From Stegostoma tigrinum (taxonomy: Eukaryota): DNA of 64,000 bases. The notes under the pieces were generated by a model. The model made no database searches and was not told the DNA's origin. It saw only the letters and a list, made by a program, of their open reading frames with translations. The stretch spans positions 129,947,178 through 130,011,177 of the forward strand of contig NC_081355.1 of assembly GCF_030684315.1 (NCBI RefSeq), in the 5' to 3' direction. Below are positions 10,161 to 63,416 of this stretch, piece by piece; the first letter of the stretch is position 1, and the number at the start of each line of letters is the position of its first letter. The translations under genes and the position numbers were made by a program.

Positions 10161-10255
10161 GATAACAAGGTGTAGAGCTGGATGAACACAGCAGGCTAAG
10201 CAGCATCAGAGGAACAGGAAAGCTGATGTTTTGGGTCTGGACCCTTCTTCAAAAA
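10161..10255 (-). mobile_element. PLE-derived mini-element with decayed hammerhead
   Basis: Matches the PLE terminal ~95 bp; TSD AAATCATAGGTGT (10148-10160) / AAATTATAGGTGT (10256-10268). Confidence 0.85.
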
Positions 10256-10684
10256 AAATTATAGGTGTCACCACTTCTGAGTCCTAATTTAACAAAGTCT
10301 GAATATACCCATTTGCACCTGTAAGTCGCAGGATAAACAATGTGACTTGGTACCAGTTAGATCCATTACCCATCCCAAGTGCCCTGAGGTCATTTACAGC
10401 ACCTCCACTGGATAGGGATTAAAACCCCCCATAAAACACAGAACCCAAGTGCCCAAAGTGTGCTGGAGAAAAGTATATGTTGCAAGCAGAACATGAATGA
10501 ATGTCTACCCAGATGTCAATCGCTGGACAGAAAATACAACATTTTTCTACATTAAAAATACACACAAGATTTGGACACAGCCGAAGTACATTCAAACTGC
10601 ACCCTATTTATAACTATCCAGCTGCACGACAAGATCACCTAGAAGCAAGTTCCGTATTGCTTTTTTAAAAATATTCTAATCAAC

Positions 10685-10782
10685 CTGTCCAGTGATCATG
10701 TCACACCTCTGCAGCAGGTGGTACTTGATCCCAATCCTCCTGATCCAGAGGTAGGGACACTATCATTGCAGTACAAGAGTCC
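10685..10782 (-). mobile_element. Short tRNA-derived SINE fragment
   Basis: Reverse-complement homology to 16460-16580 (AGTGTCCCTAC...GGATCAAGT...). Confidence 0.5.
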
Positions 10783-12519
10783 TTCACATCATTTAATTAT
10801 TGTCTACAAAGAGTGCACTTTTTCAGCCTCCTAAAGTACAACTTGTACAGACTGAAAATAGCATGAAGAAACTGTTGGCTTTCAACCAGTCCTAGAAAAT
10901 AAGGTCTTGTGATAGGATCAGTTAAATTTTCTTTCATATATATGGCTATTTTGAAAAAAAAGTGTAATTTTCATGTGCTATTGATATGCTTTGATTGCCA
11001 CAAATCAGAAACAACAGAATGCTGTTTGTGAAATGACTTGCAAAAATCCAACAATTTTGTCTGCACAGTTATGAAATGCTGGCTGTCTAATAAGTGAATG
11101 AAGAGTCAAATTAAAAACTTATGGTAAGGATTTATGCCCAAGAATCCAGAGTATGTATATTAAAAGCTGTAAATAAGACTGGAGGACTTTGCTAAGATAG
11201 TCTGGCATTGAAATGTATTGTGTTTGAATATATCATACAGAGAACTGAATCATTGCAATTTGCTAACATACATCAACATATGAAAGACTTTATAAGATAT
11301 TTCTAACAAGGTGAAGAGATTGTAGTTCTCTAGAGACTAACGCAAAAGCATAATTGATATGAATATGAATGGTATGTTAAGCAACCTCTCCTGACAGTGT
11401 TTGGAACAAAGATTTAGCTACTTACAGACTCCACTTCATATTCCCACAAAAGCAAAATTTTAAATTTTAATCATTTGCGGTGACTAACAGAAGCTGACAG
11501 AATTACTGTATTTTGATCCCAGCCCCTCATGCACACACAGTGACACTGAAGAATTGACAAGAGAAATGAGGGGAAATAGTTTTCGAAGGGGCAAGGATTT
11601 ATAAGATTCAAAAATTACTTTTGTCCCCCAACCTTAATTGTCTTGATTCTCTAAATAGAAGAAAATGAGAAGTTTTCTTTTCCCCTAAATATCTCATGGC
11701 TGGTATAGCATCTGCAGTAACAATTATTTATCTGAATTGTTTCAACTCTTGACAGACTAATTCTGCTCAGCTGTTGTCAGGAAACACATCAAGTATTCTG
11801 ACAAACCTAGAGAGATGGTTGTGGAAATGCCGTCATGAATTTAACATCAGTGGAGTATTAAGCACTTTGGATGGATCGGGGAGTTGAGTAGAATGAACAG
11901 ACAGTAACACACAAGAGAAAAACTGTGCTTATGTTTTTTTATTTGATATGCATAAAAATGAAAAACAAAAAAGCAGAGATTTTAAAAATTCTTCTCAGAG
12001 GTTTGTTAGAAACACAATCATGAAATGTATTAATGGTGCTTTTCTTCAAAAGTAACAATGCACCTGAAATGTGACTCAACGCTGGTGAACAATGCTCATT
12101 TTTGTACCTGGAAACTTAAAAGCAAGGCATCGGAAGTGGTCCCCCGCTATCTAAGGTATTTTATGAAAGCCTAATGGAACATATCAACAGATTTCCGCAA
12201 TTACTTTGACATGCATGCAGTTAGCTCAAATTTATTAATAACATGTACAGAGTTAATGTGTTTTCAGAAAACACAATTCCACTTTACTGCATCATTCCTT
12301 ATTAACAGTCCCAGACACCAATTAACACCTTGTCAGTACTTTAGGCGTGTGTCCAAGGTTTTGCTAACGATTATCTGTCCAGAAAGGGCACCATACATAA
12401 AAAACACACAGGAAGGGAACTTTCAACTATAGGAAAATGGAAATTACAGTTTAAAAGGTTATATAAAAAACAAACAAAAAAAGTGTGTGTAATTTCAATT
12501 TGCCTTTTCAAAAAAAAAA

Positions 12520-12850
12520 TCAACATATTGCTTTAATAAGGCTTCTTGGCTTTGTCCTCCAGTGATGGGACCAAAATGAGGGGGGATAATTTTCAAATCA
12601 ATGCTGGGTTAGTTAGAAATGAAATCAGGAAGCTTTTGTTTTAAACTCGGGGGGTGGCGGAAATCCGTAACTTGCTTGCAAATACCTAAATACTAGGTCA
12701 ATTAAAATTTAAGGCTGTATTAGATTTTCAACGTTAAGGTATGAAAGAAAAATCAAACAGATGTGTGTAGATGGAGTTGAGGGATGGTCTCATTTAATGG
12801 CACAATAAGCTCAAGGAGCTGACTGGTTTACTTCTGTTCCTGGGTTCCTT
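12520..12850 (+). mobile_element. Old CR1 3' fragment
   Basis: GAAATCAGGAAGC..TTT; AGCTCAAGGAGCTGACTGG..TACTTCTGTTCCT CR1 terminus. Confidence 0.55.
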
Positions 12851-13470
12851 TTACAGTCACGAAGCATTCTGTTTGCTGACTTGTGAGTATTGTAGAGTCA
12901 CTCCCAAAGGAAGTGAGCCTACATCTTAAGTCTACTGGCGCTCTTTTGTTCACAATTGAAGCAATTGCACAGATGTTCAGAAGTACACATTAAACCAACT
13001 GCATGCCATGATAGTAAACGTAAGCAATTGCCTGAAGTCATGTTTCAACTCGATTCTTCTGTAATGAGATGATTTTATGCATGTCACCAATGTCAAAACT
13101 CAACAACAATATGAACATTATTTCTTGCTAGCAGTTAACGAACAGTGTATATTTTGCCAAAATAACGAGTGACGATCTGAACTCCTCAGTAAAACACATT
13201 CATATTTGCCGACATCTCTGACACTGTAATTTCAGTGCATTACAAAAAATCTCTTGCATCTGAAGAGCTGCCATTAACAAGTGAATGTAGAACAATCAAC
13301 AAGGCAAACGGTCTACACTTGATCCCACGTAATGGGTATATTCAATATATTTGTTTCTGAAACTTTCCATATAACGTTCATCTTTAAAATCACCATTTGG
13401 TTCTGTTTGTCATGACATGAGTATTGTTGTGAATTATAAGACATGGATGACACAGTGGCACAGTAGTTAG

Positions 13471-15174
13471 ATGAGCACAGCAGGCCAAGCAGCATCTCAG
13501 GAGCACAAAAGCTAACGTTTCAGGCCTAGACCCTTCATCAGAGAGGGGGATGGGGAGAGGGAACTGGAATAAATAGGGAGTGAGGGGGAGGCGGACCGAA
13601 GATGAAGAGAAAACAAGATAGGTAGAGAGGAGAGTATAGGTGGGGAGGTAGGGAGGGGATAGGTCAGTCCAGGGAAGATGGACAGGTCAAGGAGGCGGGA
13701 TGAGGTGGTAGGTAGGAAATGGAGGTGCGGCTTGAGGTGGGAGGAAGGGATGGGTGAGAGGAAGAACAGGTTAGGGAAGCAGAGACAGGCTGGGCTGGTT
13801 TTGAGATGCAGTCGGGGGAGTGGACGAGCTGGGCTGGCCCCACCTCTTCCTCTGTTACATTGACGACTGTATCGGCACCACCTTTGCTCCCCAGAGGAGC
13901 TCGAACAGTTCATACACTTTACCAACACCATCCACCCCAACCTCAAGTTCACCTGGGCCATCTCCAACACATCCCTCACCTTCCTGGACCTCTCAGTCTC
14001 CATCTCAGGTAACCAGCTAGAAACTGATGTCCATTTCAAGCCCACTGACTCCCACAGCTACCTAGAATACACCTCCTCCCACCCACCCTCCAGCAAAAAT
14101 TCCATCCCCCATTTCCAATTCCTCCGCCTCCGCTCCCAGGATGAGGCATTCCACTCCCCCACATCCCAGATGTCCACGTTCTTCCAGGACCGCAACTTTC
14201 CCCCCGCAGTGGTCGAGAATGCCCTTGACCGCGTCTCCCGCATTTCCCGCAACACATCCTTCACACCCCACCCCCACCACAACCACCCCCAGAAGATCCC
14301 CCTCGTCCTCTCATACCAACCCACCAACCTCCAGATACAACGTATCATCCTCCGACACTTCCGCCATCTACAATCCGACCCCACCACTAAAGACATTTTT
14401 CCATCCCCACCCATGTCTGCCTTCCAAAGAGACCACCCAGAATGACTTTCCATATCAAGCAGATGTTCACCTGCACATCTGCCAATGTGGTATATCGTAT
14501 CCATTGCACCCGGTGTGGCTTCCTCTACATTGGGGAAACCAAGCGGAGGCTTGGGGACCGCTTTGCAGAACACCTCCACTCGGTTCGCAATAAACAACTG
14601 CACCTCCCAGTCGCGAACCATTTCAACTCCCCCTCCCATTCCTCAGACGACATGTCCATCATGGGTCTCCTGCAGTGCCACAATGATGCCACCCGAAGGT
14701 TGCAGGAACATCACCTCATATTCCGCTTGGAAACCCTGCAGCCCAATGGTATCAACGTAGACTTCACAAGCTTCAAAATCTCCCCTTCCCCTACTGCATC
14801 CCAAAACCAGGCCAGTTCTTCCCCTCCCCCCACTGCATCCCAAAACCAGCCCAGCCTGTTCTGCTTCCCTAACCTGTTCTTCCTCTCACCCATCCCTTCC
14901 TCCCACCTCAAGCCACACCTCCATTTCCTACCTACCACCTCATTCCTACCTATACTCTCCTCTCTACCTATCTTGTTTTCTCTCCATCTTCGGTCGACCT
15001 CCCCCTCTCTCCCTATTTATTCCAGTTCCCTCTCCCCATTCCCCTCTCTGAAGGTGGTTCTAGGCCCAAAACTTCAGCTTTTGTGCTCCTGAGATGCTGC
15101 TTGGCCTGCTGTGTTCATCCAGCTCCACACTTGGTTATCTTGGATTCTCCAGCATCTGCAGTTCCCATTATCAC
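13471..15174 (+). mobile_element. Neptune-type Penelope-like element, 5'-truncated, with inverted left arm (13471-~13835 on minus)
   Basis: YIDD RT motif (13820 ORF); GIY-YIG VVYRIHCTRCGFLYIGETKRRLGDRFAEH (14442-15092); exact 15-bp TSD TGGCACAGTAGTTAG at 13456-13470 and 15175-15189; internal deletion near 14435 relative to the 53-54 kb copy. Confidence 0.93.
13510..13543 (-). ncRNA. Minimal hammerhead ribozyme motif in PLE arm
   Basis: Minus strand ctCTGATGA-A-GGGTCTAGGCCT-GAAA-CG-TT-ag; core intact. Confidence 0.6.
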
Positions 15175-15845
15175 TGGCACAGTAGTTAGCACAGCTGTCT
15201 CTCAGTGCTAGGGAACGAGTTTCAATTCCAGCCTTGGGCGACTGACTGTGTGGAGTTTGCACATTCTCAAATGTGTCTGCATGGGTTTCCCTCCACAGTG
15301 CAAAGACATACATATTAGGTGGATTGGCCATGCTACTTTGCCCCATATTAATCAAGGAACGTGTAGGCTAGGAAGTTAGCCATGGTTAACTCAGACTGAC
15401 GGGAATAGGATAGGGGAGCTGGTCTTGCTGGGATGTTCTGCGCAGGGTTGCTGCAGACTCAATGGGCCAAATGGCCTCTACCAGTACTGGAGGGATTCGA
15501 TGATTCTACGGTTTGCACATCTTTTCAGTACTTCCAATACAGCAAAGGTGACATGACCAGATCTAAACCCAAAAAGATGCCAAGAACTAAAACATTATTT
15601 CAAATCTTAACCCCTTGTCAGCATTTTCATTCAACATGCTTAGTCATTTTGCCTGTCAAAATAAAGCAAGGTTTTCTGATGCAGTCCCATCGGGGGTGGG
15701 GGGAAAACAACTTTGCAGTTTTTCTCATTCAAGGAACTATGAAGCAAATTTCAATGAGATAAGGATCACAATACAATAAAGATCAACTCCATTAAAAAAA
15801 TTCCAAAGAAATGAATCAGTACTTTAGGTAAGTTATGAGTAAAGG

Positions 15846-15940
15846 GCTGAAAACAGCAGAAATTGCTGGAGAAACTCATATCTGTGGGAAAAAAGTACAA
15901 GTTAACATTTTGAGTCCAGTGACCCTTCATCTGAACTGAT
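15846..15940 (-). mobile_element. PLE-derived mini-element (second family) with decayed hammerhead
   Basis: Minus agtt-CAGATGA-A-GGGTCACTGGACTC-AAAA-TG-TT-aact; stem I agtt/aact. Confidence 0.7.
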
Positions 15941-21759: not shown

Positions 21760-21954
21760 GGGCAGTGAGAACTGCCAATGTTGGAGTCAGAGATAATAGT
21801 GTGGAGCTGCAGCATTGCAGGCCAGGCAGCAGAGGAGCAGGTAAGTTGACATTTTGGGTTGGGACCCATTTCTGAACAAGGGTTAGGGTGAGGTCAACTT
21901 TCTTGCTCCTCTGATGCCGCCTGGCTGCTGTGCTCCTCCAGCTCCACACTGTGT
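21760..21954. mobile_element. Inverted-dimer PLE mini-element
   Basis: Minus arm ~21760-21870 and plus arm ~21871-21954; exact 17-bp TSD TAGATCTGAAATAGAAG at 21743-21759 and 21955-21971. Confidence 0.85.
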
Positions 21955-21959
21955 TAGAT

Positions 21960-23150: not shown

Positions 23151-23436
23151 TGGTTTTTGATTTTTAACACACCTGAAATGCCCAGCTGAGTAATTTGCAC
23201 ACTCCTAATTAAGGTTAAACTTTGTCATTTTGTCTGCACATTGCATTTGATGCTGCCAGTGGCACAATATATTGCAGACTTCACACACACAACAGATTCA
23301 TCAATATATGTTATTAATACTGTGCTGAGGCAAAGGCATTTGACTTCATTTCAATAGAAAGGTATAAAAGTCTGGAATGAAGTTTTAGAATTGAGTTCTG
23401 ACAAACGTTAAGAAAATATCAATTGTCAGAGTTTAC

Positions 23437-27600: not shown

Positions 27601-27604
27601 CCCT

Positions 27605-28020
27605 GATAACAAGGTGTAAAGCTGGATGAACACAGCAGGCCAAGCAGCATCAGGGGTGCAGGAAGGCTGACGCTTTGGGACAAGACTTTTCATCAGAAAT
27701 GGGGGAGGGGAAGGGGCTTCTGAAATAAATAGGGAGAGAACGGGAGGCAGATCGAAGATGGATAGAGGAGAAGATAGGTGGAGAGGAGACAGCCATGTCA
27801 AAGAGACGGGGATGGAGCCTGTAAAGGTGAGTGTCAGTGGGTAGGTAGGGAGGAGATAGGTCAGTCCAGGGAGGACAGACAGGTCAAGGGGGCTGGATGA
27901 GGTTAGTAGGAAGGAAGTGGAGGTACGGCTTGAGGTGGGGAGGAGGGGTCGAGCTGGGCTGGTTTTGGGATGCGGTAGGGGAAGGGGAGATTTTGAAGCT
28001 TGTGAAATCCATATTGATCT
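27605..28020 (-). mobile_element. PLE 3'-terminal fragment
   Basis: INMDFTSFKISPSPTASQNQP end of the GIY-YIG ORF, pyrimidine-rich UTR, decayed hammerhead near 27665-27697. Confidence 0.85.
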
Positions 28021-28035
28021 CATTGGCCACCTCCA

Positions 28036-32364: not shown

Positions 32365-32475
32365 CCCAAGGAAGGTTTCACGACCCAAAATGTTAACTCT
32401 GATTTTTCTCCACAGATGCTGCAAGATGTGTGGAGCTTTTCCAGCAATTTCTGTTTTTGTTTCAAATCTCCAGGT
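32365..32475 (+). mobile_element. PLE mini-element (second family), decayed hammerhead
   Basis: GAAGGTTTCACGACCCAAAATGTTAACT...ACAGATGCTGC...AGCTTTTCCAGCAATTTCTG. Confidence 0.65.
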
Positions 32476-32918: not shown

Positions 32919-32946
32919 CTGACTGAACTTAAGACTTTATCCTTCA

Positions 32947-33035
32947 GTCCTGAAGGAGGGTAATACCCAAAACATTGACTGCTCTTTTCCTTCAGATGCT
33001 GCCTGGCTTGCTGTATTCTTCCATAATTTGTCTAC
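32947..33035 (+). mobile_element. PLE mini-element (third variant), decayed hammerhead
   Basis: gtc-CTGAAGG-A-GGGTAATACCC-AAAA-CA-TT-gac; stem I gtc/gac, stem II GGGT/ACCC. Confidence 0.65.
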
Positions 33036-36129: not shown

Positions 36130-36960
36130 ATATTTGCAATTAACCCATGCCTATTCTCTGTTCTGCACCTCCGCCTGCTTTAGCATCTTTCCTACCTAAT
36201 TATAACATTGACAAGGCTAAAGTCTTGGTTACCCTGAGGTTCAAATGTTCCAATTCTGATCAAACTGACTACTTATCTTTAACCTCTGTAAACTCTTGCT
36301 CATCTTGAACTCTGTTGCCCTTGTCTTTGGAGTTGTTGGTTGGTTCACCGAACTGACTGATTTCCATGAAAACATTTGGTCAAAACATTTCCTCTCCCTT
36401 CTAGGTGACATCATCAGTGCTGCGTAGCCCCCACTGAAGCGCTGTTGTTCTGTCCCATTCTGAAGTTTATAGGGTCCAGTCTGTCATGGTGGGGAGTCGT
36501 GTTTCTGGTTTTCTACCGTAGTAGTATGTAGACAAGAGTATTTCAACATGTTTATTTATCGCATCAGCAGTTGAAAACCAGGCCTCCAGGAATTCTCATG
36601 CTTGTTTTTGCTTCGCTTGTCCCTAACACCGTAACTTTGTCCCAGTCAAATTGACGTCTTTCTATGTCAGAGTGTATTGAAATGAGGGAGAGTCGGTCAT
36701 GCCATTTTGCTGAGAGTTGGTGTTCATGTATCCTGGTGGCGGGTTTCCTGCCTGTCGGTCCTATGTAGTGTTTCTCGCAGTTGCTGCATTGTCTTTACTT
36801 CGACCCAGCCTTCTTACCCAGCACCTTATAATCAATACTCTACACAGACCTTTTACTTCACACAGCATTAAATTTAAAATTTCAATCCATTTGCTTCAAT
36901 CCTTCATGGCCACACTTCCTGCAACTCGTCACCTTTTCAATTTCCTTCAATACTGCAGCA
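36130..36960 (+). mobile_element. L2 LINE remnant interrupted by a PLE (36130-36325 + 36800-36960)
   Basis: Degraded L2 RT C-terminal sequence similar to 57700-57990 (AACTCTGTTGCCC; TTTAAAATT...TCCTTCATGGCC). Confidence 0.45.
36330..36795 (-). mobile_element. Distinct Penelope-like element fragment (GIY-YIG end plus hammerhead motif)
   Basis: Minus translation CNCEKHYIGPTGRKPATRIHEHQL...FDWDKVTVLG...EFLEAWFS...INKH; CTGATGA-T-GTCACC..-GAAA-TG-TT at 36383-36419. Confidence 0.8.
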
Positions 36961-40551: not shown

Positions 40552-40850
40552 GAAGCCATACAGTGTGGAAACTGGCCATTCAGCCCAACAAGACCATGAC
40601 CACCCCCTGGAGCATCCTGCCCAGATCTGTCCCCCTACAACCCACCCAATCTACACATACCTGAACATTACAGGCAATTTAGCATGGCCAATCTACCTAG
40701 CCTGCACATCTATGGACTGTGGGAGGAAACCCACACAGGCAAGGGGAGAATCTGAAAACTCCACACTGATAGTTTCCCAAGGGTGGAATCAAGCCTGGGT
40801 CCGTGGCACTGTCAGGCAGTAGTGCTAATCACTGAGCCACCGTGCTGTCC
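40552..40850 (-). mobile_element. HE1-like V-SINE
   Basis: GGCAATTTAGCATGGCCAAT, GACTGTGGGAGGAAACCC, GTGCTAATCACTGAGCCACCGTG (reverse tRNA head). Confidence 0.85.
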
Positions 40851-41859: not shown

Positions 41860-41971
41860 AACCTGACAAAGGGGCTGTACTCCGACGGCTTTGAGAATCC
41901 AAATAAACCCGTTGGACTATAACCTGGTGACTTTGTCCACCCCAGACCAACACTAGCACCTCCACATCATG
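41860..41971 (+). mobile_element. PLE terminal fragment (fourth family), decayed hammerhead
   Basis: CTGACAA-AGGGGCTGTACTCC-GACG-GCTT...AAATAAACCCGTTGGACTATAACCTGGTG; homologous to 63296-63416. Confidence 0.65.
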
Positions 41972-42711
41972 CTGTGACTTTTAACTTCTTGGCAGCCTTT
42001 TCAGAACCTTGGTTTCCCCCGTGTAAAGCAACATATACACTAGCTTCCTGTACGGAGGACAATCAAATAAACAAGTACCAGTCTCCAAAGAGGAACACGT
42101 GTTAAGATTTGGCATGGGACAGGCAATGGCAACATGCTCTGTGAAGTCTTTTTCATACACAGATGGTAATATTACACCATTTGAATTAACAAACACTAAT
42201 ATGGATTTTTCATCAACTAAAGCAATTTTGTGGAGGTCTGGAATGTAGTTATGGGAGCTTGTACTGTCTTGGCTTCAAACCTGTTGCAGTCTAATCACAG
42301 ACAGCCCAGAGACGTTTAAGTTTCTTTCTCCAAAAAATTTTGACGTTTCACTCAAGCAGAATTTCAGTTTGAATAAGGCAGAGTTCTATACGCAGCCAAG
42401 TTGGGGAAGGATGGCTCCACGTCACCTGTCGTCAACTTTAGGCTCGAACTGGTAGCTGTAGTGAAATGTGCCTTTGATTTTCAAAGCAATTCCTCTCTAT
42501 GCAGCTTTCTGTGAATTCTTGATGCAGACTTGTGGCTGTATTTACTCAGCAATGACTAATACATGTGAATTGATCTGATTTGCATTCAGGTCCTATTTTC
42601 TGTGCGCTATTGTTTCAAAACAATTACACGCAATCCATCCAAAAATGTCAACTCAGGGATAAATTTTGTATCGAATAAAAAAAATGTCTCTCCACCAATG
42701 TTGAGCAACTT

Positions 42712-42743
42712 CTCTGATGAAGGGTCTAGGCCCGAAACGTCAG
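42712..42743 (+). ncRNA. Minimal hammerhead ribozyme motif, fully intact core
   Basis: ct-CTGATGA-A-GGGT(CTAG)GCCC-GAAA-CG-TC-ag; predicted cleavage after GTC at 42741. Confidence 0.65.
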
Positions 42744-42840
42744 CTTTTGTGCTCCTGAGATGCTGCTTGGCCTGCTGTGTTCATCCAGCCTCACATTTTA
42801 TTATCTTGGAATCTCCAGCATCTGCAGTTCCCATTATCTC
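42714..42840 (+). mobile_element. PLE mini-element, 127 bp
   Basis: Exact 13-bp TSD TTGAGCAACTTCT at 42701-42713 and 42841-42853. Confidence 0.9.
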
Positions 42841-44084: not shown

Positions 44085-46266
44085 ATGAGTGAAGAACCTG
44101 AACTATCTGGAAAGAAATCTAAAAATGTACAACTTCAACATGGAGGTGGAAAAAATGTCAGTTCATAATTGTAACTGACAAGAGCTTTTGCCTTACGTCC
44201 CCAAGTGTATCAATAAGTGAAAAGGGGAATTTGGAGTAGCACAACTACAATGATGCACAGTAAGTTTAAAGGCAGCTTGCCCTTGGGCAGCACGCTTCAG
44301 AAAAAGAAAGTTGATGATTGAATCTGAAGAAGGGTCTAGGCCTGAAACGTCAGCTTTTGTGTTTCTGAGATGCTGCTTGGCCTGCTGTGTTCATCCAGCT
44401 TCACACTTTGTTATCTTAAGTTGATGATTGAAGGCCATTTTGAACACTTGACAGTCTTTTATCTAAACAAGCCAAAATTCAGCCTACGCTGAAACACCAT
44501 AATTGTCATTTTCTGGAAAAGCACAAGAAATCATTCACAGATAGCAAACTAATTGAATAAACAATGACTGTAGCTGCTAACTTTTAGCTCAAAGGTCTTA
44601 AGAATCAGCAAAGAAAATAGTAACAGCAATCCAGACAAGTTACTTTGTGTTTCCACGGTAGCAAAATGAGTGCAATATTTGTCGAGAGATGTTGTTCAGA
44701 AACTATAGTACGACCTGAACTGCTGTGAACGCTTCTCACTGCAGTTTGATGAGTCCATCGACAGGAACAACAGAGACCAGTTAATTTGTTATGTCTTTAA
44801 AAACCATGCATGCAAAAACAACTGAAGTAGATATTCTCACCTTGTTGGCTGCGTGAAGATAAAGAAAAGGTAAGAAGACCTACGACAGTTTAAATGCTGT
44901 GTTTGAGAAAATAAATTCCAATTAACAAACTGTTTTCCACTACAAGTAATGCTATACTAGTCATGCGCATCACAAATGCAAGCTTTGTTGCCATTTGCAA
45001 AAATGATCCAGCCATACTGTTATTTACCATTTCCCACTGTGTAAGCCACCAAGCATTAGTCAATAATATTATGGTTTTTCTCATGAAATGACAGTTGTTA
45101 AGACTGTAAACTCAATTCAAGTAAGAGCTCTTCAGCGCCACTTGCTTAAACCCCTACTTGATAAACTCCCAGTGGTTTGTGGTGAACTAATCCCCTATTC
45201 TGACATAAGGTGGTTAAATTGAGGAAAGGACCTGCAAATAAATTTAGGTCTGATGCCTGAAATGGCCACTTTTCTCAGATCATGGAATGAAATGCAAAGT
45301 GAGCATCAGACAATATGTGGTTCCTTGACTTTGGGTTCCTGACAAACAATATCATAAGTGAGCAAGTTGAACAGTGAACTGTTAAGGACAGATTTAGCAC
45401 ATATGATCAGGGCTGAGAACTGATTTAAATTTAATCTAGTCCTGCAGTCTGACCAAATTAAAAATAAAACATTGCAATACTTCAAGGCCAGAGAAAATTC
45501 TCCAAAAAAAAATCAAAAACAAGTAAAATTGCCCCACCCAGAAACCCTCTGTGCACACCTTGAGGAAGTCAGCATATCAATTTAGCAAGTGATTGCAGGA
45601 ACCAATTGTCTCAAGTCCATTCTTTCAACTCAACGTTAATGAATTGACTACCAAATACTATCAGTTGTGTGATTGACAAAGACTATGTCCAAGCATCACA
45701 ATGTATGCGTATTTAATGAAGCAGTGAATGGAGTCGGTGGTTTGGGGAAGAGATACAGGCACAGACTTGGGAGAGGGAGGTTAGATATTTGGGGTGGGCA
45801 CTCTGAACCTTCTGAATCCTGTTTCAATATCACGCTTCTATTGCGTACCTTGTGTGGCCATACAACAAGGCCTTGTGTAGCTGGTCTGGAATAGGTTATA
45901 TGCGCGCTCATCCGGAAATAGTTTCCTTCATTTGCAAGTGTCAGGAGACACTGCCACTTACAAAACAGTGGAGTTGATATGGAAATAATTACGCTGCAAA
46001 ATAATCATGAGCTGAAAGTCAGATCAAGGGAAAGTCATCTTTGGGAACTTGTAAACAGTGAAAATACCAGCTATCATTTTGTGCTTTAAAAATGTTAAGA
46101 AATACTTTGGCTCCAGTAACCCCAGTGGGACAGCGTTCTCCCAAAAGATGCTAATCAAGCGCAAATCATGCACCTGTGTCACAGATAACCATTTGATGAG
46201 CATCTCAAACCTAAACCAGATTTCAAGACGTTGGTAAATAACGTGCAGTCAAAGGTATCAAATTGA
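44085..46266 (+). pseudogene. Decayed hAT transposase (SPIN/GTF2IRD2-like)
   Basis: FSLQFDESIDRNNRDQL (DDE-region motif), RWLN*GKDL, DFGFLT, degraded FGS..SAFS..IK..TDNHL dimerisation domain; many stops and frameshifts; putative right TIR AGTTTGCCGATCACTG at 46549-46564. Confidence 0.8.
44323..44417 (+). mobile_element. PLE mini-element, 95 bp, inserted in the hAT remnant; hammerhead core intact
   Basis: Exact 15-bp TSD AAGTTGATGATTGAA (44308-44322, 44418-44432); CTGAAGA-A-GGGTCTAGGCCT-GAAA-CGTC. Confidence 0.9.
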
Positions 46267-46305
46267 CACTTGCTGAGTACAGGACAAAATTACGAATTAT
46301 TCATA

Positions 46306-46427
46306 GGGTCTAGGCCCGAAACGTCAGCTTTCCTGCTCCTATGCTGCTGCTTGGCCTGCTGTGTTCATCCAGCTCTACACCTTGTTATCTCAGATTCTCC
46401 AACATCTGCAGTTCCTACTATCTCTGA
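46306..46427 (+). mobile_element. PLE mini-element lacking CTGATGA
   Basis: TSD TACGAATTATTCATA (46291-46305) / TACTATTTATTCATA (46428-46442). Confidence 0.85.
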
Positions 46428-48428
46428 TACTATTTATTCATACTTGGTTTTACATTTTCATAGCACTAAAAATCAAGTTTATTCTATATTTTCTTATGGG
46501 TTGTTCTTAGGTTACACTTAAATCCAAAATGTGATCATGTGCCTTAAAAGTTTGCCGATCACTGCCCAAAACACACAAAGGTCCGAGTCTAATAGAGAAG
46601 TACGCCATTCTCCCTGAGCTGCAAACTAGGCACAGTCATCTGTAGCAGATTCAAGCATCGAAGGAAATAAACTCCCAGTGGTCTGATTCTCACAATACAA
46701 CTAAGTTTGTTGTGCCAATAAAATTATACATACAACTGCTAGTATCTGCTGCATGTAACTTGCTGTTGGATCTAACTGCGGCCTTAAGAAATAAATTGAT
46801 AATCCTTGGGTCTGTTAATTTTCCAGGAATGGCCTGGGGGCTTCAAGAATGGAACATTATTATCCAGTAGACAACAGCAAGCAATTGTAGAGGAAAAATC
46901 ATAGCAGTAATAACAGGATTGTGTTTTATTCATTTTCTTCAAACACTGACAATCTAGCTCTTCATCTGAGAGTCAAGAATTTTCCATTATCATAGATCAT
47001 GAGCTTTTAATCTTTCCAATTGCCATGCAAAGGGCAGTTCACAGGAAGTTTATTGTGTGGTGATGCCAATAGGAGGATTATGGGGATGGGCAGTTGGAGG
47101 TCAAAGACCATGTATTGAAATCTCCAAGAACACACTCACCAACTTGAATCCACGATGCTGCTCATTCCAAAATCATTACATTTATTTGATTTAACGCAAC
47201 TAATGAAACACTAGTATAAATACAAACTTGAGTAAAATAGCAGTACAATGTGATACAATTAATTACTTGATGCACACACTTGCCTAAAAGAAATACATTG
47301 GAGATTTTTGTGATAAAAACAAAGCATACTGGAATAACACTAAAGGTCTGGCCATATCCATGGACAGGCAATGAGGAGATCATGTCTCAAGTCCAATATA
47401 ATTCTTCTTCCTCCAAATGCAACTTTAAAGCATACATTGCATTCCTTGAGGATTTCTACACATGTACTCACTATCATGGCGTATGAATGACAGGTAAGAA
47501 ATTCTGATTTTCATGATGTGAAATTAAGAGCCCCCCCTCCTTCCTATCAGAGTTGCAGCAACAGACAGGCAAACAGGGAATCTCCTCATTGCATGATGGC
47601 AACTTCAAACATTCATCATTCCTAACAATCTCCCAAGGTTTGCTTTTTTTAAAAACGCGTGTATTTTGTCACTGCTAAAAATAATTACACTTGCATTGAA
47701 AAAATGCAAGCTCTGCTCTTTCCCTGGCAACCATTATTGTTTCGTTGCTGGGATTGCCTACTACCATGACCTTACACAACTTTAGTGCTTCATTTTTCAC
47801 TCAATGGACTGGGAAACAGATTCGTTCCAAAAATGGTGAAGCAGAGCAAGTGGGGAAATCCCAGTGGTCTTTTTTTAATGCAGTTGACAACTTTGAGATA
47901 ATATTGCGCCTCGTACATTGTTGGAGGTGGTGCATGTTATCGATTCAATTCCCCAGTGAAAGAAATACATTCAATACATGTATTTTTCTTGTATCCAGTG
48001 AGCAAATCAAACCAATTATTTCTGCACAGGGACTATTGTGTATAAAGAATTCAAATGCCACTTCTAAGTTATTATACTGACCCAGATTTTTGGGCAATCA
48101 GTCAAACAGTAATAGGCTCACAGGGTATTCTAAAGCCCATGGCACAAATAATATGTATATGTGCACTGCATGTAAACAACATAGCAGTGGTTTGAAGACT
48201 GAAGATTGGCAGCTTTTCTACAGGATTCTAACATGCTGATCTAACATGCTGAGGAGTAAACAATAGGAACCACTTGCACGAATAATGTGGGTATGAAGTG
48301 CCAAAAATTTTGGCACTGATAACATAACAACCTCAAATTCACAGTCAATCGCATCGTGACAACGTTCACCGATGGCCACAAAGAAACATGGCACAATTAT
48401 CTTGCTGTTTCTTTGAAATGGAAGTCAC

Positions 48429-51219: not shown

Positions 51220-51421
51220 GAGACAACAAGGCGTAGAGCTCAATGAGCACAGCAGGCCAAGCAGCATGAGAGGAGCAGGAAAGTTGATGTTTTGGGTCTA
51301 GACCCTTCATCAGAAAACTGTCAGCCTTCCTGCTCCTGTGATGCTGCTTGGCCTGCTGTGTTCATTCAGCTCTACACTTTGTTGTCTCAGATTCTCCAAC
51401 ATCGCAGTTCATACCATCTCT
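51220..51421. mobile_element. Inverted-dimer PLE mini-element
   Basis: Minus arm 51220-51314, plus arm 51320-51421; TSD GGATAAAGATACT (51207-51219) / GGAAAAAGATACT (51422-51434). Confidence 0.88.
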
Positions 51422-51810
51422 GGAAAAAGATACTCGTGTGTTATATTAATATACAAAATGCTACCTTTTAATAGAAAGATCGATACATTTTGAAATGTTA
51501 CCATTTTTACTGAATGGATTTAACCATGTAAGACTCCATTGTAGCACTGAGGCAGTGTTAAACTGTTTGTCAGTTCATATACGTAAATGAGATATGCCTG
51601 TTCCAATGGTGCTGTTTAGCATTAAAGGCAAGGCCCTGACTGCCTGTTGACATAATTCTGATGAATACAAACAATCCCACAGCACTTTGGAACAGCATGG
51701 AGTTACCACTGTATCAGAGATAATGGGAACTGCAGATAGTGGAAATTCCGAGATAATAAAGTGTGAAGCTGGATGAACACAGCAGGCCAAGCAGCATCTC
51801 AGGTGCACAA

Positions 51811-51844
51811 AAGCTGACGTTTCGGGCCTAGACCCTTCATCAGC
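51811..51844 (-). ncRNA. Minimal hammerhead ribozyme motif in inverted PLE arm
   Basis: CTGATGA-A-GGGTCTAGGCCC-GAAA-CGTC on minus; the partner copy at 54892-54921 has GAAA changed to AAAA. Confidence 0.55.
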
Positions 51845-52889
51845 GAGGGGGATGGGGTGAGGGTTCTGGAATAAATAGGGAGAGAGAGGGAGGCGGACCT
51901 AAGATGGAGAGAAAAGAAGATAGTTGGAGAGGAGAGTATAGGTGGGGAGGTAGGGAGGGGATAGGTCAGTCCAGGCAAGGCGGACAGGTCAAGGAGGTGG
52001 GATGAGCTTAGTAGGTAGGAGATGGAGGTGCGGCTTGGGGTGGCAGGAAGGGATGGGTGAGAGGAAGAACAGGTTAGGGAGGCAGAGACAGGTTGGACGG
52101 GTTTTGGGATGTGGTGGGGGGAGGGGAGATTATGAAGCTTGTGAAGTCCACATTGATACCATTGGGCTGCAGGGTTCCCAAGCGGAATATGAGTTGCTGT
52201 TCCTGCAACCTTCGGGTGGCATCATTGTGGCACTGCAGGAGGCCCATGATGGACATGTCATCTAAAGAATGGGAGGGGGAGTTGAAATGGTTCGCGACTG
52301 GGAGGTGCAGTTGTTTGTTGCGAACCGAGCAGAGGTGTTCTGCAAAGCGGTCCCCAAGCCTCCGCTTGGATTTCCCAATGTAGAGGAAGCCACACCGGGT
52401 GCAATGGATACAGTATACCACATAGGCAGATGTGCAGGTGAACCTCTGCTTAATATGGAAAGTCATCTTGGGGCCTGGGATAGGAGTGAGGGAGGTGGTG
52501 TGGGGGCAAGTGTAGCATTTCCTGCGGTTGCAGGGGAAGGTGCCGGGTGTGGTGGGGTTGGAGGGCAGTGTGGATCGAACAAGGGAGTCACGGAGAGAGT
52601 GGTCTCGCCGGAAAGCAGACAAGAGTGGGGATGGAAAAATGTCTTGGGTGGTGGGGTCGGATTGTAGATGGCGGAAGTGTCGGAGGATGATGCGTTGTAT
52701 CCGGGAGGTTGGTGGGGTGGTGTGTGAGAATGCGGGGAATCCACTTTGGGCGGATGTGGCGGGGGCGGGGTGTGACGGATGTGTTGCCGGAAATGCGGGA
52801 GACGCGGTCAAGGGCGTTCTTGACCACTGTGGGGGGAAGTTGCGGTCCTTGAAGAACTTGGACATCTGGGATGTGCGGCAGTGGAATGC

Positions 52890-54769
52890 CTCCGACACCA
52901 CCTCCTACCGCCCCCTTGATCATGACCCCACCCCCGAGAACCAAACCATCATCTCCAACGCCATGACCTCATTACCTCAGGTGACCTCCCACCCACAGCC
53001 TCCAACCTTATTATTCCCCAACCCCGCACGGCCCATTTCTACCTCCTTCCCAAAATCCACAAACCTGCCTACCCTGGTCGACCCATTGTCTCAGCCTGTT
53101 CCTGCCCCACCGAACTCATCTCCACCTATCTGGACTCCATTTTCTCCCCTTTGGTCCAGGAACTCCCTACCTACGTCCGTGACACCACCCAGCCTCTCCA
53201 CCTCCTCCAGAACTTCCAATTCCCTGGCCCCCAACACCTCATTTTCACCATGGACATCCAGTCCCTATACACCTGTATTCCACATGAAGATGGCCTCAAG
53301 GCCCTCCGCTTCTTCTTGTCCCGCAGGCCCGACCAGTCCCCCTCCACCGACACCCTCATCCGCCTAGCTGAACTCATGCTCACCCTCACCAACTTCTCTT
53401 TCGATTCCTCCCACTTTCTACAGACAAAGGGGGTGGCCATGGGCACCCGCATGGGCCCCAGCTATGCCTGCGTCTTTGTAGGTTACGTGGAACAGTCCCT
53501 TTTCCGCACCTACACAGGCCCCAAACCCCACCTCTTCCTCCGGTACATTGATGACTGTATTGGCGCCGCCTCTTGCTCCCCAGAGGAGCTCGAACAGTTC
53601 ATCCACTTCACCAACACCTTCCACCCAACCTCAAGTTCACCTGGGCCAACTACAACACATCCCACACCTTCCTGGACCTCTCAGTCTCCATCTCAGGCAA
53701 CCAGCTTGTAACTGATGTCCATTTCAAGCCCACCGACTCCAACTGCTACCTAGAATACACCTCCTCCCACCCACCCTCCTGCAAAAATTCCATCCCCTAT
53801 TCCCAATTCCTTCGCCTCTGCCGCATCTGCTCCCACGATGAGGCATTCCACTCCTGCACATCCCAGATGACCAAGTTCTTCAAGGACTGCAACTTTCCCC
53901 ACACAGTGGTTGAGAACGCCCTTGACCGCGTCTCCCACATTTCCCGCAACACATCCCTCAGACCTCGCCCCCGCCACAACCGCCCAAAGAGGATCCCCCT
54001 CGTTCTCACACACCACCCCACCAACCTCCGGATACAACGCATCATCCTCCGACACTTCCGCCATCTACAATCCGACCCCACCACCCAAGACATTTTTCCA
54101 TCTCCACCCTTGTCTGCTTTCCGGAGAGACCACTCTCTCCGTGACTCCCTTGTTCGCTCCACACTGCCCTCCAACCCCACCACACCCGGCACCTTCCCCT
54201 GCAACCGCAGGAAATGCTACACTTGCCCCCACACCTCCTCCCTCACTCCTATCCCAAGCCCCAAGATGACTTTCCATATCAAACAGATGTTCACCTGCAC
54301 ATCTGCCAATGTGGTATATTGTATCCATTGCACCCGGTGTGGCTTCCTCTACATTGGGGAAACCAAGCGTAGGCTTGGGGACCGCTTTGCAGAACACCTC
54401 CGCTTGGTTCGCAGCAAACAACTGCACCTCCCAGTCGTGAACCATTTCAACTCCCCCTCCCATTCCTCAGACGACATGTCCATCATGGGCCTCCTGCAGT
54501 GCCACAATGATGCCACCCGAAGGTTGCAGGAACAGCAACTCATATTCCGCTTGGGAACCCTGCAGCCCAATGGTATCAATGTGGACTTCACAAGCTTCAA
54601 AATCTCCCCTCCCCCCCCCCACCGCATCCCAAAACCAGCCCAGCCTGTCTCTGCCTCCCTAACCTGTTCTTCCTCTCACCCATCCCTTCCTCCCACCCCA
54701 AGCCGCACCTCCATTTCCTACCTACCACCTCATCCCGCCTCCTTGACCTGTCCACCTTCCCTGGACTGA
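52890..54769 (+). pseudogene. PLE RT-GIY-YIG polyprotein, 5'-truncated and frameshifted
   Basis: MDIQSLYT, GVAMGTRMGPSYA, LRYIDD (53151-53711); frameshift near 53625 into PNLKFT...YSQFLRL...VVYCIHCTRCGFLYIGET (53573-54769). Confidence 0.92.
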
Positions 54770-55579
54770 CCTATCCCCTCCCTATCTCCCCACCTATACT
54801 CTCCTCTCCACCTATCTTCTTTTCTCTCCATCTTCGGTCCACCTCCCCCTCTCTCCCTATTTATTCCAGAACCCTCACCCCATCCCCCTCTCTGATGAAG
54901 GGTCTAGGCCCAAAACGTCAGCTTTTGTGCTCCTGAGATGCTGCTTGGCCTGCTGTGTTCATCCAGCTTCACACTTTATTATCTTGGAGTTCCCATTGTG
55001 CCCTGATTAATCATGCTCCTTCAAGCAACACTAAAAGAAGACTAAATGGCCATTCATTTCATTGTTGAATGCGACACCTTCTGGCTGTCATATTTGCCTT
55101 CACATATCAGTACATTTCAAGTTTATTTGTTCTTTGTGAAGCACTTTAAGTTGTTTAAAGATATGATGAAGTGCTTTGTAACTACAAGTATCTGTGCAGA
55201 GTGAGAAAGATCAAGTAAGGATTAGATTCAGTTGTCAACAGACACTGGTAATGCAAAGTTTTGCCTCACCCATTGTGGATGGCTACTTGCTAAAAGAAAT
55301 GTCATGCCGATAAATGTTAATACAGAAAAGGGTTATGATCTGTTTCCCACACGGTTACTGATCAATACTAATAGCTGCTTCTCAGCTCCTTAGCATCACA
55401 CTTTGTTAATAATCAGGCAGTAGCTAGCAATTCAACTAATCAGAGTCCATGGGGAAAGGAGTCTTAGAAATACATACGTTGATCACACAACATCAATTGT
55501 ACAAGCCACTAGAGCTCAGGAGCAGTCTAGATTGTAAATAGACCCACTTACCATTGCTACTTAATTTTTAAACTAGCAT

Positions 55580-56955
55580 CAGTCAATTGTACTGAGTGAA
55601 GTACCTATAGTACAGAAAAAGTCCTTTTGGCCCACTGTGTCCGAAGCTATCAATAACAACCACTTAACTATTCTAAACCCCTTTCCAACACTTGGTCTAT
55701 AGCATTGTATGCTGTGGCATCGCAAGTGCTCATTTAAGTATGTAAATGTGCAGAGGGTTTCTTCTGCCGCTATGACCCTTATAGGCAATGAGTTCCAATT
55801 CCCACCAACCTCTGGGTGAAAGAGATTTTCCTAACATCTCCCTCAAACCTTCTGCCTTTTATCTTAAATTTATGCCCCTGCTCATTGATTCCCTCAATCA
55901 GGGGGAGTAGTTTCTCACTGTCTACCCTTAGCCCCTCATAGTTTTATACATTGAATATCAGAGTTGAGAGGTCATGTTGTGGCTGGACAGGACACTAACT
56001 AAGCCACTTTTGGAATACTGCGTTCAATTCTTGTCTCCCTGCTTTAGGGAGGATGTTGTGAAACTTGAAAGGGCTCAGAAATATTGACGAGGATGTTGCC
56101 AGAGTAGGAGGATTTCAGCTATAGGGAAGAGCTGAACAGGTTGAGACTATTTTTCCTGGAGTTTTTCTTCTTTATTCTTTGATGGTATCTATTGCCCATC
56201 CCTAATTGTCCAAAAGGCAGTTATGAGTCAACCACTCTGCCGTGGATCTGGAGTCATATGTAGGCCAGATCAAGTAGGGATGGCACATTTCCTTCGTCAA
56301 AAGGACATTACTGAACCCGATGGGATCTTCTGACAGTCATCATTAGATTCTTAATTCCAGACATTTATTTAATTCAAATTCCACCATCCATCTGGGTCTC
56401 TAGATTAACAGTACAGTGACAATACCACTAGGCCATCACCTCCTTCTGTCAAAAGCTGAGGAGTGACCTTATCGAGCTTTATAAAATGATGAAGGGCATG
56501 GATAAGGTAAACAGGCAAGGTCTTTTCCCTGGGGTAAGTGAGTCCAAAACTAAAGGACATAGGTTTAAGGTGAGAGAGGAAAGATTTAAGAGAGACCTAA
56601 GGAGCAACTTTTCCACACAGAGGGTGGCGTGTATACGTGATGAGCTGCCAGTGGTGGAGGAGGAGTCTGGTGTGATTGCAACATTTAAAAGGCATCTGGA
56701 CGTGCATATGCATAGGAAGAGCTTGAGAGAGATAGGAGCCAAATGCTGGCAAATGGGACTGGATTTATACAGGATATCTGACCTGCATGGAAGAGTTGAA
56801 CCAAAGGGTCTGTTTCCATGCTGCATACCTCCATGACTCTATGACTATGACCTTTCTTATTTTCCTCCGGCACAGGGAAAACAACCTCAGTCTGTCCAAT
56901 CTCTCCTCAAACTCTCCAGCCTAAGCAACAGCCTGGTAAATTCTCTCTATACACT
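55580..56955. mobile_element. Nested LINEs: minus CR1 host, plus CR1 (55958-56848), and a minus LINE 3' end (56160-56445)
   Basis: KGHRFKVREERFKRDLRSNFSTQRV and (CTATGA)n tail at 56830-56848; the host minus CR1 resumes after 56850. Confidence 0.75.
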
Positions 56956-58285: not shown

Positions 58286-58299
58286 CATCTTAAAATATA

Positions 58300-60480: not shown

Positions 60481-60484
60481 CTAA

Positions 60485-60984: not shown

Positions 60985-61130
60985 GCCAATGCTGGAATCT
61001 GTGCAGAAACAACAAATGCTGGAGGTCACAGCTCTGATGAGGAGTTATTGAGATGCACAACGTCCGCTTTCTCTCTCTCCACGGATGCTATCTGACCCGC
61101 TGTCATCTCCAGCACTTTTTGTTTTTATGT
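60985..61130. mobile_element. PLE mini-element remnants with decayed hammerhead
   Basis: ctCTGATGAGGAGTTATTGAGATGCACAACGTC followed by ACGGATGCT...CTCCAGCACTTTTTG; a short minus-strand arm precedes it. Confidence 0.5.
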
Positions 61131-62659
61131 GCACTAATGGCTGGTTTCCCAGGACTAACTCAATTTACGAGTAAAATACATTTCCTTTTTCTCATCATCA
61201 TCTGTTACTTACCATGTTAAGAGACTATATCCCTCCTTCTAAAACCCACACATTACATGTAAAAAAACATTGAATCTTTCATTTAAAAGGACAACCTCAT
61301 AAGTATCAAACAGGAGGTCAATGCTGAGAAATGCTTTCTTTCTGTATTTCTTATTACTATGATCCAACTATCCCAATTCAGGTTTCTTTTGTAGTCTATG
61401 GCATTTCATGTGTCCTTTAGACTAATTTAACATTTGAATTGCAAAATTAACCCAAGGGATTCATTTTCAAATAGGTAAAAAAAATAAAAATCATTTGTCA
61501 AATTTTACATATTCAACAATTCTGACACATATTCTGACATTTCAGATACCCAAAAGATTTTCCAAGGAAGCATTTGACGAAATGGAGAATTAAGCCTGTA
61601 AGAAAAGAACTAGATAGGTAGGTGCAGGTTTGACCCTCAGTCTTCGCTGAGTTATCTAATGTCACTTCTTTTGTAGTGGGGTTCTTTTAATTTGGATTTT
61701 TGCTGCAAACATTTAAGTGGACCCTTTTGGTTCCTTTATCCGAGTCGCTCTGCACTGCCATGTGATGATTAGCTTATTCACATCAAAGGTTAAGTACTCT
61801 GAGCATTTAAACTCTCAGAATCTTTATGTTAGATTAGTAAGTGTTAGCAAGATCATAAGTGCTGTTAAATCAAATTGACAGGCCAATACAGACCAATGCT
61901 GCATTGTCCTCCTGCAGAGAGACCAGCTACATAGGAAACCACCTCTTCATTCTGCACCACCAGAATGTTTATCTGCAACATTATCCCACAACAGGGTTCA
62001 TGTCATGTTTTGATCAATTAAAAAAAAAACCACCTATGATGCCACCTTAACTGTACTAAAATGCACATTTCAAAGATCAAATTATGATGACAGATTATAC
62101 AAATTAGGCTTACTTTCGCCGGAATTTCGAAGGTTATGGGTAATCTCATCGAAGACTTCAGCCAGTTCAATTCTATGTGATGTTAAGAAATGGCTGCGAG
62201 AACTGGGTGCTGCAAAGTCTATGGGCCTTGACATTCTGGCAATAGGGAGGAGGATCTGTGCTCCATAACATGCCGTACCCCTAGTGAAGCATTTCCAGGA
62301 CACCTACATCACTGGCATCTGCCAACGTAGAAAAATATCTCAATATGTCCTGTACACAAAAAGCAGAACACTCCAACCTAACCAATTATTATCCCATCAG
62401 TCTATCCTTGATCGTCAATAAAGTTCTAGGAAGTGACATCAACAGCACTATCAAACAGATTTTGCTCAGTGATGGCCTACTAACTGATACGCTGTGGTTC
62501 TGTTATGGTCACTCAGCTTCTGACCACAGTACAACCTTGGTTCAAACATGTACAAGGAGGTTGAATTCCAGAGGTGAAGTGGCAGCAACTTCCCTAGATA
62601 TCACTGTCACATTAAACCAATTATGACATCAAGAAGCCCCACCTCAACTGAGTCAACAG

Positions 62660-62782
62660 TAGTCAGAACTGCAGATGCCGGAGAATCTGAGGTAAGAAGG
62701 TGTGGAGCTGGATGAACACAGCAGGCCAAGCAGCAGAGGAGCAGGAAAGCTGATGTTTCGGGCCTAGACCTTTCTTCAGAAA
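62660..62782 (-). mobile_element. PLE mini-element
   Basis: Minus CTGAAGA-A-AGGTCTAGGCCC-GAAA-CATC; same unit as 42714-42840. Confidence 0.85.
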
Positions 62783-62867
62783 TGCTCTCCACTGGTTGGA
62801 GTCACACCTGGCACATAGGAAGACTGTTGAGCTTGTTGGAGGTCAGTTTTCTCAGCCCCATGACATT

Positions 62868-63285
62868 GGATTCTATGGATTCTATCACAGAATCCTGCAG
62901 AGTGGAAGCAGGCCATTTAGCCCATCAAGTCCACACCGACCCTCCAAAGAGCATTCCACCCTAATCTGCCCCTGTAGCCCTGCTTTTCTCATGGCTAATC
63001 CACCAAGCCCACACATCGCAGGACACTGTGGTCAATTTAGCATGGCCAAACCACCTAACCTGCACAGCTTTGCACCATGAGAGGAAACCGGAGTACCGGG
63101 AGGAAACCGGAGTACCGGGAGGAAACCGGAGTACCGGGAGGAAACCGGAGTACCGGGAGGAAACCACCACAGTCTTGAAGACAGCTTTCGAATTCTGAAC
63201 AGACAGTCCCCACAGGATGCAATCAAACCCAGGTCCCTGACGCTGTAAGGCAGCAGTGTGAACCACTGAGCCATCGTGTCACCCC
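62868..63285 (-). mobile_element. HE1-like V-SINE
   Basis: CAATTTAGCATGGCCAAACCACCTAACCTGCAC; reverse tRNA head GTGTGAACCACTGAGCCATCGTG. Confidence 0.85.
63081..63165. repeat. 19-bp minisatellite (GAGGAAACCGGAGTACCGG) x4 plus 9 bp
   Basis: Four perfect copies at 63081, 63100, 63119, 63138, inside the SINE. Confidence 0.97.
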
Positions 63286-63295
63286 ATCTAAACTT

Positions 63296-63416
63296 CACCT
63301 GATAAAGGATCAGTGCTTCGAAAGCTTGCGATTTTAAATAAACTTGGACTGTAACCTGGTGTCGTCTAACTTCTGATTTTGTCCTCCCCAGTCCAACAGT
63401 GGCATCTCCATATCAT
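63296..63416 (+). mobile_element. PLE terminal fragment (fourth family) with hammerhead motif
   Basis: cac-CTGATAA-A-GGATCAGTGCTTC-GAAA-GC-TT-gcg. Confidence 0.7.

Follow-up and report, generated by a model that had tools for sequence, protein, structure and literature searches.

Related systems

Minimal hammerhead ribozymes are already published parts of the Penelope-like retroelements (PLEs) of metazoans (Cervera and De la Pena 2014, PMC4209133). The present work concerns such ribozymes, and the PLE that carries them, in a 64,000-nt stretch of Stegostoma tigrinum contig NC_081355.1 (the window), in which the hammerhead survey spans 10161..63416. According to the available part of that paper, the published ribozymes have the same type I core lacking a helix III, with palindromic positions 15.2-16.2, an extra base after A9 and the pair G10.1-C11.1, and likewise form many covarying families of mostly solo truncated PLE copies, with pairs on opposite strands. 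The differences are a stem I of only 2-4 bp here, a copy number about ten times their highest (9,000) and a shared 5' boundary or putative start site at the ribozyme, which the same part does not describe.

PAc, the Poseidon element of Anolis (Frangieh et al. 2024, PMC11167929), has two internal reverse transcriptase (RT) start sites that define an optional tail, as is also proposed here. Both strands were extended in vitro and uncut RNA was the main substrate, in likeness to the proposal made below. The present element differs in a C-x4-C-xx-C linker, and in its run-off wall and cap-like G, neither of which is reported for PAc in the accessible portion of that study.

Adineta Pen2a (PMC3846280) and Penelope of Drosophila virilis (PMC2377424) share with this element an inverted truncated arm, a tail at one end, a target-site duplication (TSD) and promoter motifs in the pseudo-long terminal repeat (pseudo-LTR, pLTR), TATA and initiator (Inr) motifs having been noted in a pLTR (PMC3846280). 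As far as the sections available go, junction palindromes are explained in PMC3846280 by self-priming on an antisense template, whereas the long and short pairs found here fit two sense cDNAs, and in D. virilis Penelope the start site is separated from the ribozyme by an intron (PMC2377424), unlike the proposal here.

Non-LTR retrozymes (PMC7229834, bioRxiv 10.64898/2026.07.22.740005), in the parts of these sources available, also comprise type I hammerheads in short PLE-related repeats and were found in the one chondrichthyan sampled. They are tandem units, whereas the copies in the window are stubs, dispersed and flanked by TSDs; no tandem in which every unit has an intact hammerhead was found there, and arrays are rare elsewhere.

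A common 5' boundary of the copies

Copy ends were placed on a scale where the C of CTGA (C3) is 0, which puts the predicted cut between +27 and +28. The unbiased sample comprises 87 evenly spaced 10-kb genome stretches (870 kb), where 180 of 185 arms of family A/B were usable for end statistics (300 nt of flank, 3' end past +60).

The 5' ends of these arms form a wall just before the core: 46 of the 180 end in -8..0, with the mode at -4 (15 arms), only one ends in -20..-9 and 53 extend past the wall upstream. The end rate per base is 8.0 times that of +1..+60 and 25 times that of -280..-9. Divergence does not explain the wall, since of the 43 arms ending in -10..-1, 26 have an identity of 90% or more to the reference. 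Ends in -8..0 were identified in 24 of 38 mirror pairs. Family C, with a different upstream sequence, has 28 of 69 ends in -10..0, and most copies of family D seem, by eye, to begin near -6.

Promoter-like words precede the wall in these families. Of the 46 long A/B copies, 42 have TATTTAT beginning at -33..-35, some 30 nt ahead of the wall; a TATA-like word lies at -30..-34 in five of six long C copies, with TCAGTT or CCAGTT after it; and TATAAA is located at -39..-41 in three D copies with a shared or TATA-bearing upstream. At the wall, family C carries TCAGTT, its A falling at -4, and family A a pyrimidine run, which resemble Inr and TCT initiators, respectively. An extra G was identified before exact -4 junctions, where the template base is C, in 66 of 100 among the matches listed (of 622), and at 13 of 73 internal +19 control junctions (Fisher p=3e-10). 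In non-inverted loci the G was present in 11 of 17, and in the unbiased sample in 12 of 32 against 11 of 72. An extra G from copying of the cap is known from LINE (long interspersed element) work. The stub 5' ends pile up about four bases before the core, quite probably because capped RNA starts there and RT runs off its end, the short copies being likely TSD-flanked run-off stubs with a common 5' boundary.

Several points weigh against a capped start at this site. More than half of the core-reaching arms (53 of 99) pass the wall, so a second process is needed. None of the 17 loci whose match continues into the ORF and up to the locus end (locus ends, not whole elements) starts in -8..0; three start at +5..+9, six further inside, and eight extend upstream. 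The extra G could be a C added by terminal transferase, it lies inside the TSD in three of six G-bearing solos with a clear TSD, 11 of 22 inspected G loci are inversions or tandems, and the +19 control includes doubly substituted full copies. In family F the wall at -4 is absent, and most copies reach well upstream. The Poisson p for the wall (5e-26) is overstated because the arms of a pair are not independent. Finally, the Drosophila Penelope start is placed 46 nt and an intron upstream in the available part of PMC2377424.

The 3' ends of the 180 arms are bimodal, at +90-95 and +126-133, and 36 of 38 head-to-head mirror pairs in the 870-kb sample join one long and one short arm, an arrangement that fits the two adjacent RT start sites and the extension of either strand found for PAc in vitro (PMC11167929). 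Among 100 tandem junctions listed (of 193), -4 and -2 are the usual first positions of the downstream copy, in many cases with a G before them, and the upstream copy joined to it was mostly left at +30..+37; run-off ends do rejoin other templates. An automatic search identified TSDs of at least 8 bp in 5 of 21 sampled solos against 0 of 99 controls.

Minor clusters of apparent 5' ends occur at -93 (five), -69 (four) and -36/-37 (five) and may be subfamily boundaries or weaker stops. About 12 inversion joins of the form GAGAG-CTCTC directly before AGC (+28), such as C1:61194105, can be read as a -4 end joined to a cut-site end or as a short fold-back. Contigs of sequencing runs aligned to 54600-55000 cannot reveal RNA ends; the one DNA run has 279 contigs with loose ends before 54891, but it may come from the assembly's own sample and was not used as support.

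Hammerhead cores and families

A preliminary description of the window had named four cores of the form CTGANGA-N-stem II-GAAA-NN-TH, and the motif is present at each of them. A strict scan of the window gave four matches without mismatch against 0.0 expected (12 Markov shuffles). When two core mismatches were allowed the count was near chance (nine against 7.3 expected), thus decayed copies are recognisable by homology only. Homology search identified 20 arm-level matches, three of them tail only or without the 5' half of the core, and two further decayed copies lie at 61034(+) and 36417(-); the recognisable cores are about 18, in agreement with the about 17 copies described before, and since both arms of an inverted insertion enter the count, the insertion events are fewer. 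The shared 5' boundary of the short copies is absent from the preliminary description. By self-comparison the four named cores are copies of one repeat end. The claim that they are intact held only for that at 42714, which passes the full test of the core, its palindrome, stem II and a stem I of 2 bp. Those at 13541 and 44324 carry C11.1>T (CpG decay), which makes the basal pair of stem II a G-U, and at 51843 a G disrupts the first pair of stem I. Among the sampled A/B arms 27 of 185 are intact, and the sites most often altered are CpG positions.

The very high density reported earlier, one per 4 kb, was borne out and is ordinary for the genome, 270 matches being found in the 870-kb sample. 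The exact 30-mer core occurs 90,316 times in the 3.2-Gb genome (control 0), and a strict descriptor gave 46 matches in the sample against 0, 0 and 1 in three Markov controls. The Rfam scan of the window gave no hammerhead family at E<=10; weak microRNA-like Rfam matches at 51251-51357 are explained by the head-to-head mini-inversion at 51220..51421.

The cores comprise CUGANGA, GAAA-N-N-UH, G10.1-C11.1, the extra base after A9 and the palindromic 15.2-16.2, these last two as already described, and are real, mostly decayed parts of Penelope-like retrotransposons, sitting for the most part on short, dead insertions. The canonical type I features (6-bp helix I, loop 1-loop 2 contacts, closed helix III) were not found, stem I being 2-4 bp long and the helix III loop absent.

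The existence of several PLE families with covarying stems was confirmed from family majorities; a MAFFT alignment set families D and F out of register. There are at least five: A/B, C, D, the 32950 type and F. All the stem variants listed before are present, and compensatory changes distinguish the families. Pair 2.1-1.1 is U-A in A, B and C, C-G in D and the 32950 type, and A-U in F; pair 10.3-11.3 is A-U in family D and G-C elsewhere; and the centre of the stem III palindrome is GC in family D against CG. Family C has stem II GGGTC/GACTC and stem I agtt/aact, family D stem II GGA../..TTC and stem III AGCT, and the 32950 type stem I gtc/gac and stem II GGGT/ACCC. Family F, with a 6-bp stem II, an extra U and stem I tca/tga, was not among the earlier variants; it has 11-12 copies in 934 kb, as in sampled stretches L039:41, L047:5183, L063:3342 and L078:1620. 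Once inserted, the catalytic positions are not better kept than loop 2 (8.3% of core against 3.2% of loop 2 positions changed, the figure being inflated by truncations).

The earlier caveat that CUGAUG can pair with CGUCAG as an inactive hairpin proved right: in a 135-nt fold this pairing has a predicted probability of 0.90-0.97 and stem I of 0.00. For the monomer, -3.6 kcal/mol is predicted for the hammerhead against -11.4 for the rival hairpin, and for two copies the predicted pairing runs through stem II and is not that of a hammerhead dimer. Folding energies were no better than those of shuffles (z of 0.19, -1.49 and 0.33).

The carrier element

The proposed PLE origin is supported by RT and GIY-YIG endonuclease (EN) domains upstream of the hammerhead, itself some 100 nt short of the retroelement's 3' end. 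In the largest insertion of the window both domains are spread across 52926-54769. RVT_1 (PF00078) was matched in the window, in the direct arm 52893..54984, at E=1.7e-6, just under the Pfam cut-off, with a second match at E=6.8e-5, also under; GIY-YIG (PF01541) was just under in the window (E=1.8e-4, direct arm 13838..15171) and over the cut-off in genomic copy L208 (E=5.6e-5). As in EN-bearing (EN+) PLEs, one open reading frame (ORF) has RT followed by a C-terminal GIY-YIG, the examined copies carrying breaks, and the insertions present a partial-tandem pLTR, an inverted truncated arm, an optional 30-40 bp tail and a TSD. The linker joining RT to EN is C-x4-C-xx-C (CNRRKCYTC in 53555-54769). 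A CX2-5CxxC linker at this place is the Neptune/Nematis motif (PMC8557442), by which the element would be of Neptune/Nematis type. A search of PDB sequences with the RT gave no match.

In 30 loci with longer genomic copies the tail continues into the 5' part of the ORF, and many of the longer copies carry an upstream copy of the 3' untranslated region (UTR), the partial tandem described for PLEs in PMC8557442 and in the available part of PMC4209133. In the ORF a long Thr/Ala/Pro-rich stretch with ADADGTPPT repeats precedes the RT (L208:2850-5318; also L154 and L166), and this stretch is the break point in many near-full copies. Arrays of pLTR pieces with one hammerhead per unit were identified in L110 (5076, 5377, 5678, minus strand), L086 (7452, 7892, 8340, plus strand), C1:153245740 and C2:66928770; the array periods are about 301, 440 and 46-48 bp, and these may be nascent retrozymes.

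Features of the window

The PLE content of the window comprises two larger insertions (13471-15171 and 51709-54984), both of which have an inverted arm and are bounded by a TSD, together with two mini-inversions and several stubs between TSDs (Table 1).

Table 1. PLE-derived features of the 64,000-nt window; core positions refer to the hammerhead
Feature	Position	Strand	Details
PLE stub, decayed hammerhead and short tail	10161..10255	-	13-bp TSD 10148-10160/10256-10268; 5' end -5 (ribozyme 5' edge), 3' end +92
Inverted PLE arm	13471..13824	-	core 13514-13541 (C11.1>T); TATTTAT from 13575; 18-bp TSD 13453-13470/15172-15189
Direct arm: RT end, GIY-YIG, 3' UTR	13838..15171	+	GIY-YIG 14391-15092; TATTTAT 15014; decayed hammerhead 15048; long tail
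Decayed family C stub	15860..15937	-	stem II GGGTC/GACTC, stem I agtt/aact
Decayed mini-inversion (head to head) of an older A/B subfamily	21764..21956	.	by homology
Older 5'-truncated PLE end with 3' UTR	27604..28026	-	TATTTAT 27731; decayed hammerhead 27696
Decayed family C stub	32366..32470	+	by homology
Decayed stub	32950..33030	+	stem I gtc/gac, stem II GGGT/ACCC
Decayed family F hammerhead	36384..36417	-	
Decayed family D stub	41863..41972	+	by homology
Run-off stub, only fully intact hammerhead of the window, long tail	42714..42840	+	core 42714-42741; predicted cut after 42741; 13-bp TSD 42701-42713/42841-42853
Run-off stub, short tail	44323..44417	+	core 44324-44351 (C11.1>T); 15-bp TSD 44308-44322/44418-44432
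Stub truncated within ribozyme (+7), long tail	46305..46433	+	TSD at least 9 bp
Head-to-head mini-inversion	51220..51421	.	minus arm from -4, short tail; plus arm from near cleavage site, long tail; 13-bp TSD 51207-51219/51422-51434
Inverted arm of largest PLE insertion	51709..52892	-	GIY-YIG, 3' UTR, TATTTAT 51877, core 51816-51843, long tail; 94% identical to 53840-54995; insertion TSD 11 bp, 51698-51708/54985-54995
Direct arm of largest insertion, 5'-truncated ORF	52893..54984	+	RT 52926-53711; linker and GIY-YIG 53555-54769 (other frame); TATTTAT 54858; hammerhead 54892-54919 (G12>A); short tail
Strongly decayed family C-like stub	61034..61120	+	
Stub from -3, long tail	62666..62782	-	core G10.1>A, palindrome lost
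Family D stub	63299..63418	+	stem II GGA../..TTC, stem III AGCT, core G8>A

Other repeats are also present. A repeat resembling a short interspersed element (SINE) is shared by 40639-40844, 15175-15342 and 62997-63278, with a perfect 19-bp tandem repeat (4.5 copies) at 63081-63165; it is split by the PLE insertion 13471-15171, the 18-bp TSD of which is unusually long. LINE fragments, presumably of the CR1/L2 type judging from their protein motifs, were identified at 223-774(-), 8085-8450, 22126-23224(-), 28097-28842, 49600-50361 and 56432-56846, with an RVT_1 match at 22835-23224. The long ORFs at 18456 and 21447 gave no Pfam match, and no host gene was identified in the window.

Proposed mechanism

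In the proposed mechanism the upstream copy's 3' UTR would be a TATA/initiator promoter firing at the foot of stem I, and such a start would leave a stem I of 2-4 bp. The PLE protein would nick both DNA strands and prime cDNA at two internal sites, on a template mostly uncut at the 5' ribozyme. The cap-reaching cDNAs may then be joined to the target or, as mirror pairs, to one another, or may switch to another template. About half of the wall-reaching cDNAs continue into the 3' UTR, perhaps by jumping to the 3' copy or by copying circular RNA or longer transcripts. Ribozyme action would be confined to the element's own particle, as a dimer and/or assisted by protein, and not on host transcripts.

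In the accessible text on PAc the required RNA extends about 55 nt past the priming site (PMC11167929). These about 55 nt are absent from the genomic 3' tail, so if the same holds here priming would occur in the 5' copy and long insertions would need a jump or a circle. Minus-strand strong-stop DNA of retroviruses and LTR elements is alike in its internal priming near the RNA 5' end, its run-off at the cap and the need for a jump. It differs in that the present element would be primed by target DNA and its stubs are integrated, a dedicated strand transfer being only a proposal. A replication of this kind, rather unlikely in its full form, would comprise priming about 95-130 nt inside the capped RNA, run-off and a jump to the hammerhead copy of the 3' end, possibly cut by the ribozyme. 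The ribozyme would be a 32-nt terminal repeat regenerating the pseudo-LTR, two RNAs per particle, possibly paired by stem III, would give the mirror insertions, and the hundreds of thousands of stubs would be failed jumps.

Alternative explanations

The wall could instead be an RT stall, or a hot spot of second-strand joining, at a C-rich tract or RNA structure on a longer (read-through, multimeric or circular) RNA, with the G added by terminal transferase. Family A does have a C-rich tract immediately upstream, more than half of the core-reaching arms pass the site, and multi-copy transcripts are proposed in the available part of PMC11167929. However, the wall is also present in family C, which lacks a C-run, a structural stall would be expected at the 3' foot of the hairpin, the TATA spacing suits a start site in three families and internal ends have no excess of G, and we regard the stall as improbable. 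Still less credible is that the short copies form an independent non-autonomous family, SINE- or retrozyme-like, amplifying itself: TSD-flanked units of 95-135 bp are abundant and short tandem arrays exist (L110, L086), but the stubs lack the upstream TATA region, their inner 5' ends are scattered, and they share both 3' ends with the long copies and match the autonomous subfamilies.

The two remaining alternatives concern cleavage. That a substantial minority of the PLE RNAs is cut by the ribozyme in vivo, with cDNAs running off at +28, is compatible with a capped start at the stem I foot and is a genuine possibility, short of being probable. Genome-wide junctions with three non-template flank bases number 2774 at +28 against 116 at +26 and 216 at +30, and in 50 matches listed of 1535 close inversions the symmetric joins are AGCT (the cut site) in 28, ACGT in 2 and GGCC in 6-7. 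As AGCT is favoured over equal nearby palindromes, palindrome length alone is no explanation and cDNA ends gather there, in an estimated 1-2% of arms. However, cDNAs ending at +28 and at +30 give one and the same AGCT join, and the rival hairpin has its 3' foot at +29/+30, thus the minor cut-site peak may reflect cleavage in vivo but is indistinguishable from a hairpin stall. Furthermore, 26 of 30 inspected +28 loci were inverted joins, with one clean TSD-bounded solo and one ambiguous; the unbiased sample has no end peak at the cut site (8 in +26..+30 against 5.9 expected); and 3 of 100 tandem junctions listed (of 193) leave at GUC/AUC, which gives no support to cut 3' ends joined to a new start. 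In the PAc work, within its available part, no reads end at the cut site and cleavage is not needed in vitro (PMC11167929). The preliminary description had also supposed that intact copies could cleave host pre-mRNA, and many of the about 90,000 exact cores are necessarily intronic. This is most improbable: misfolding is predicted for the monomer and stem II pairing for two copies, few arms are intact and there is no sign of core conservation after insertion. In the portions of the literature available, minimal PLE hammerheads gave no cleavage as monomers (PMC4209133) or need the PLE protein (PMC11167929). Cleavage of PLE hammerheads as dimers is reported (Lunse et al. 2017, as cited in PMC6765202).

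Significance

Literature searches gave no paper on a start-site wall or a cap signature at PLE hammerheads, nor on these ribozymes in sharks, subscription papers and supplements lying largely outside their scope. By extrapolation (270 per 870 kb) the genome holds about one million copy ends, an abundance that permits a single-base reading of the RNA start, the two priming sites and the template jumps. If transcribed, the mirror insertions of about 90 bp (38 per 870 kb) would burden host RNA as double-stranded hairpins more than the ribozymes would.

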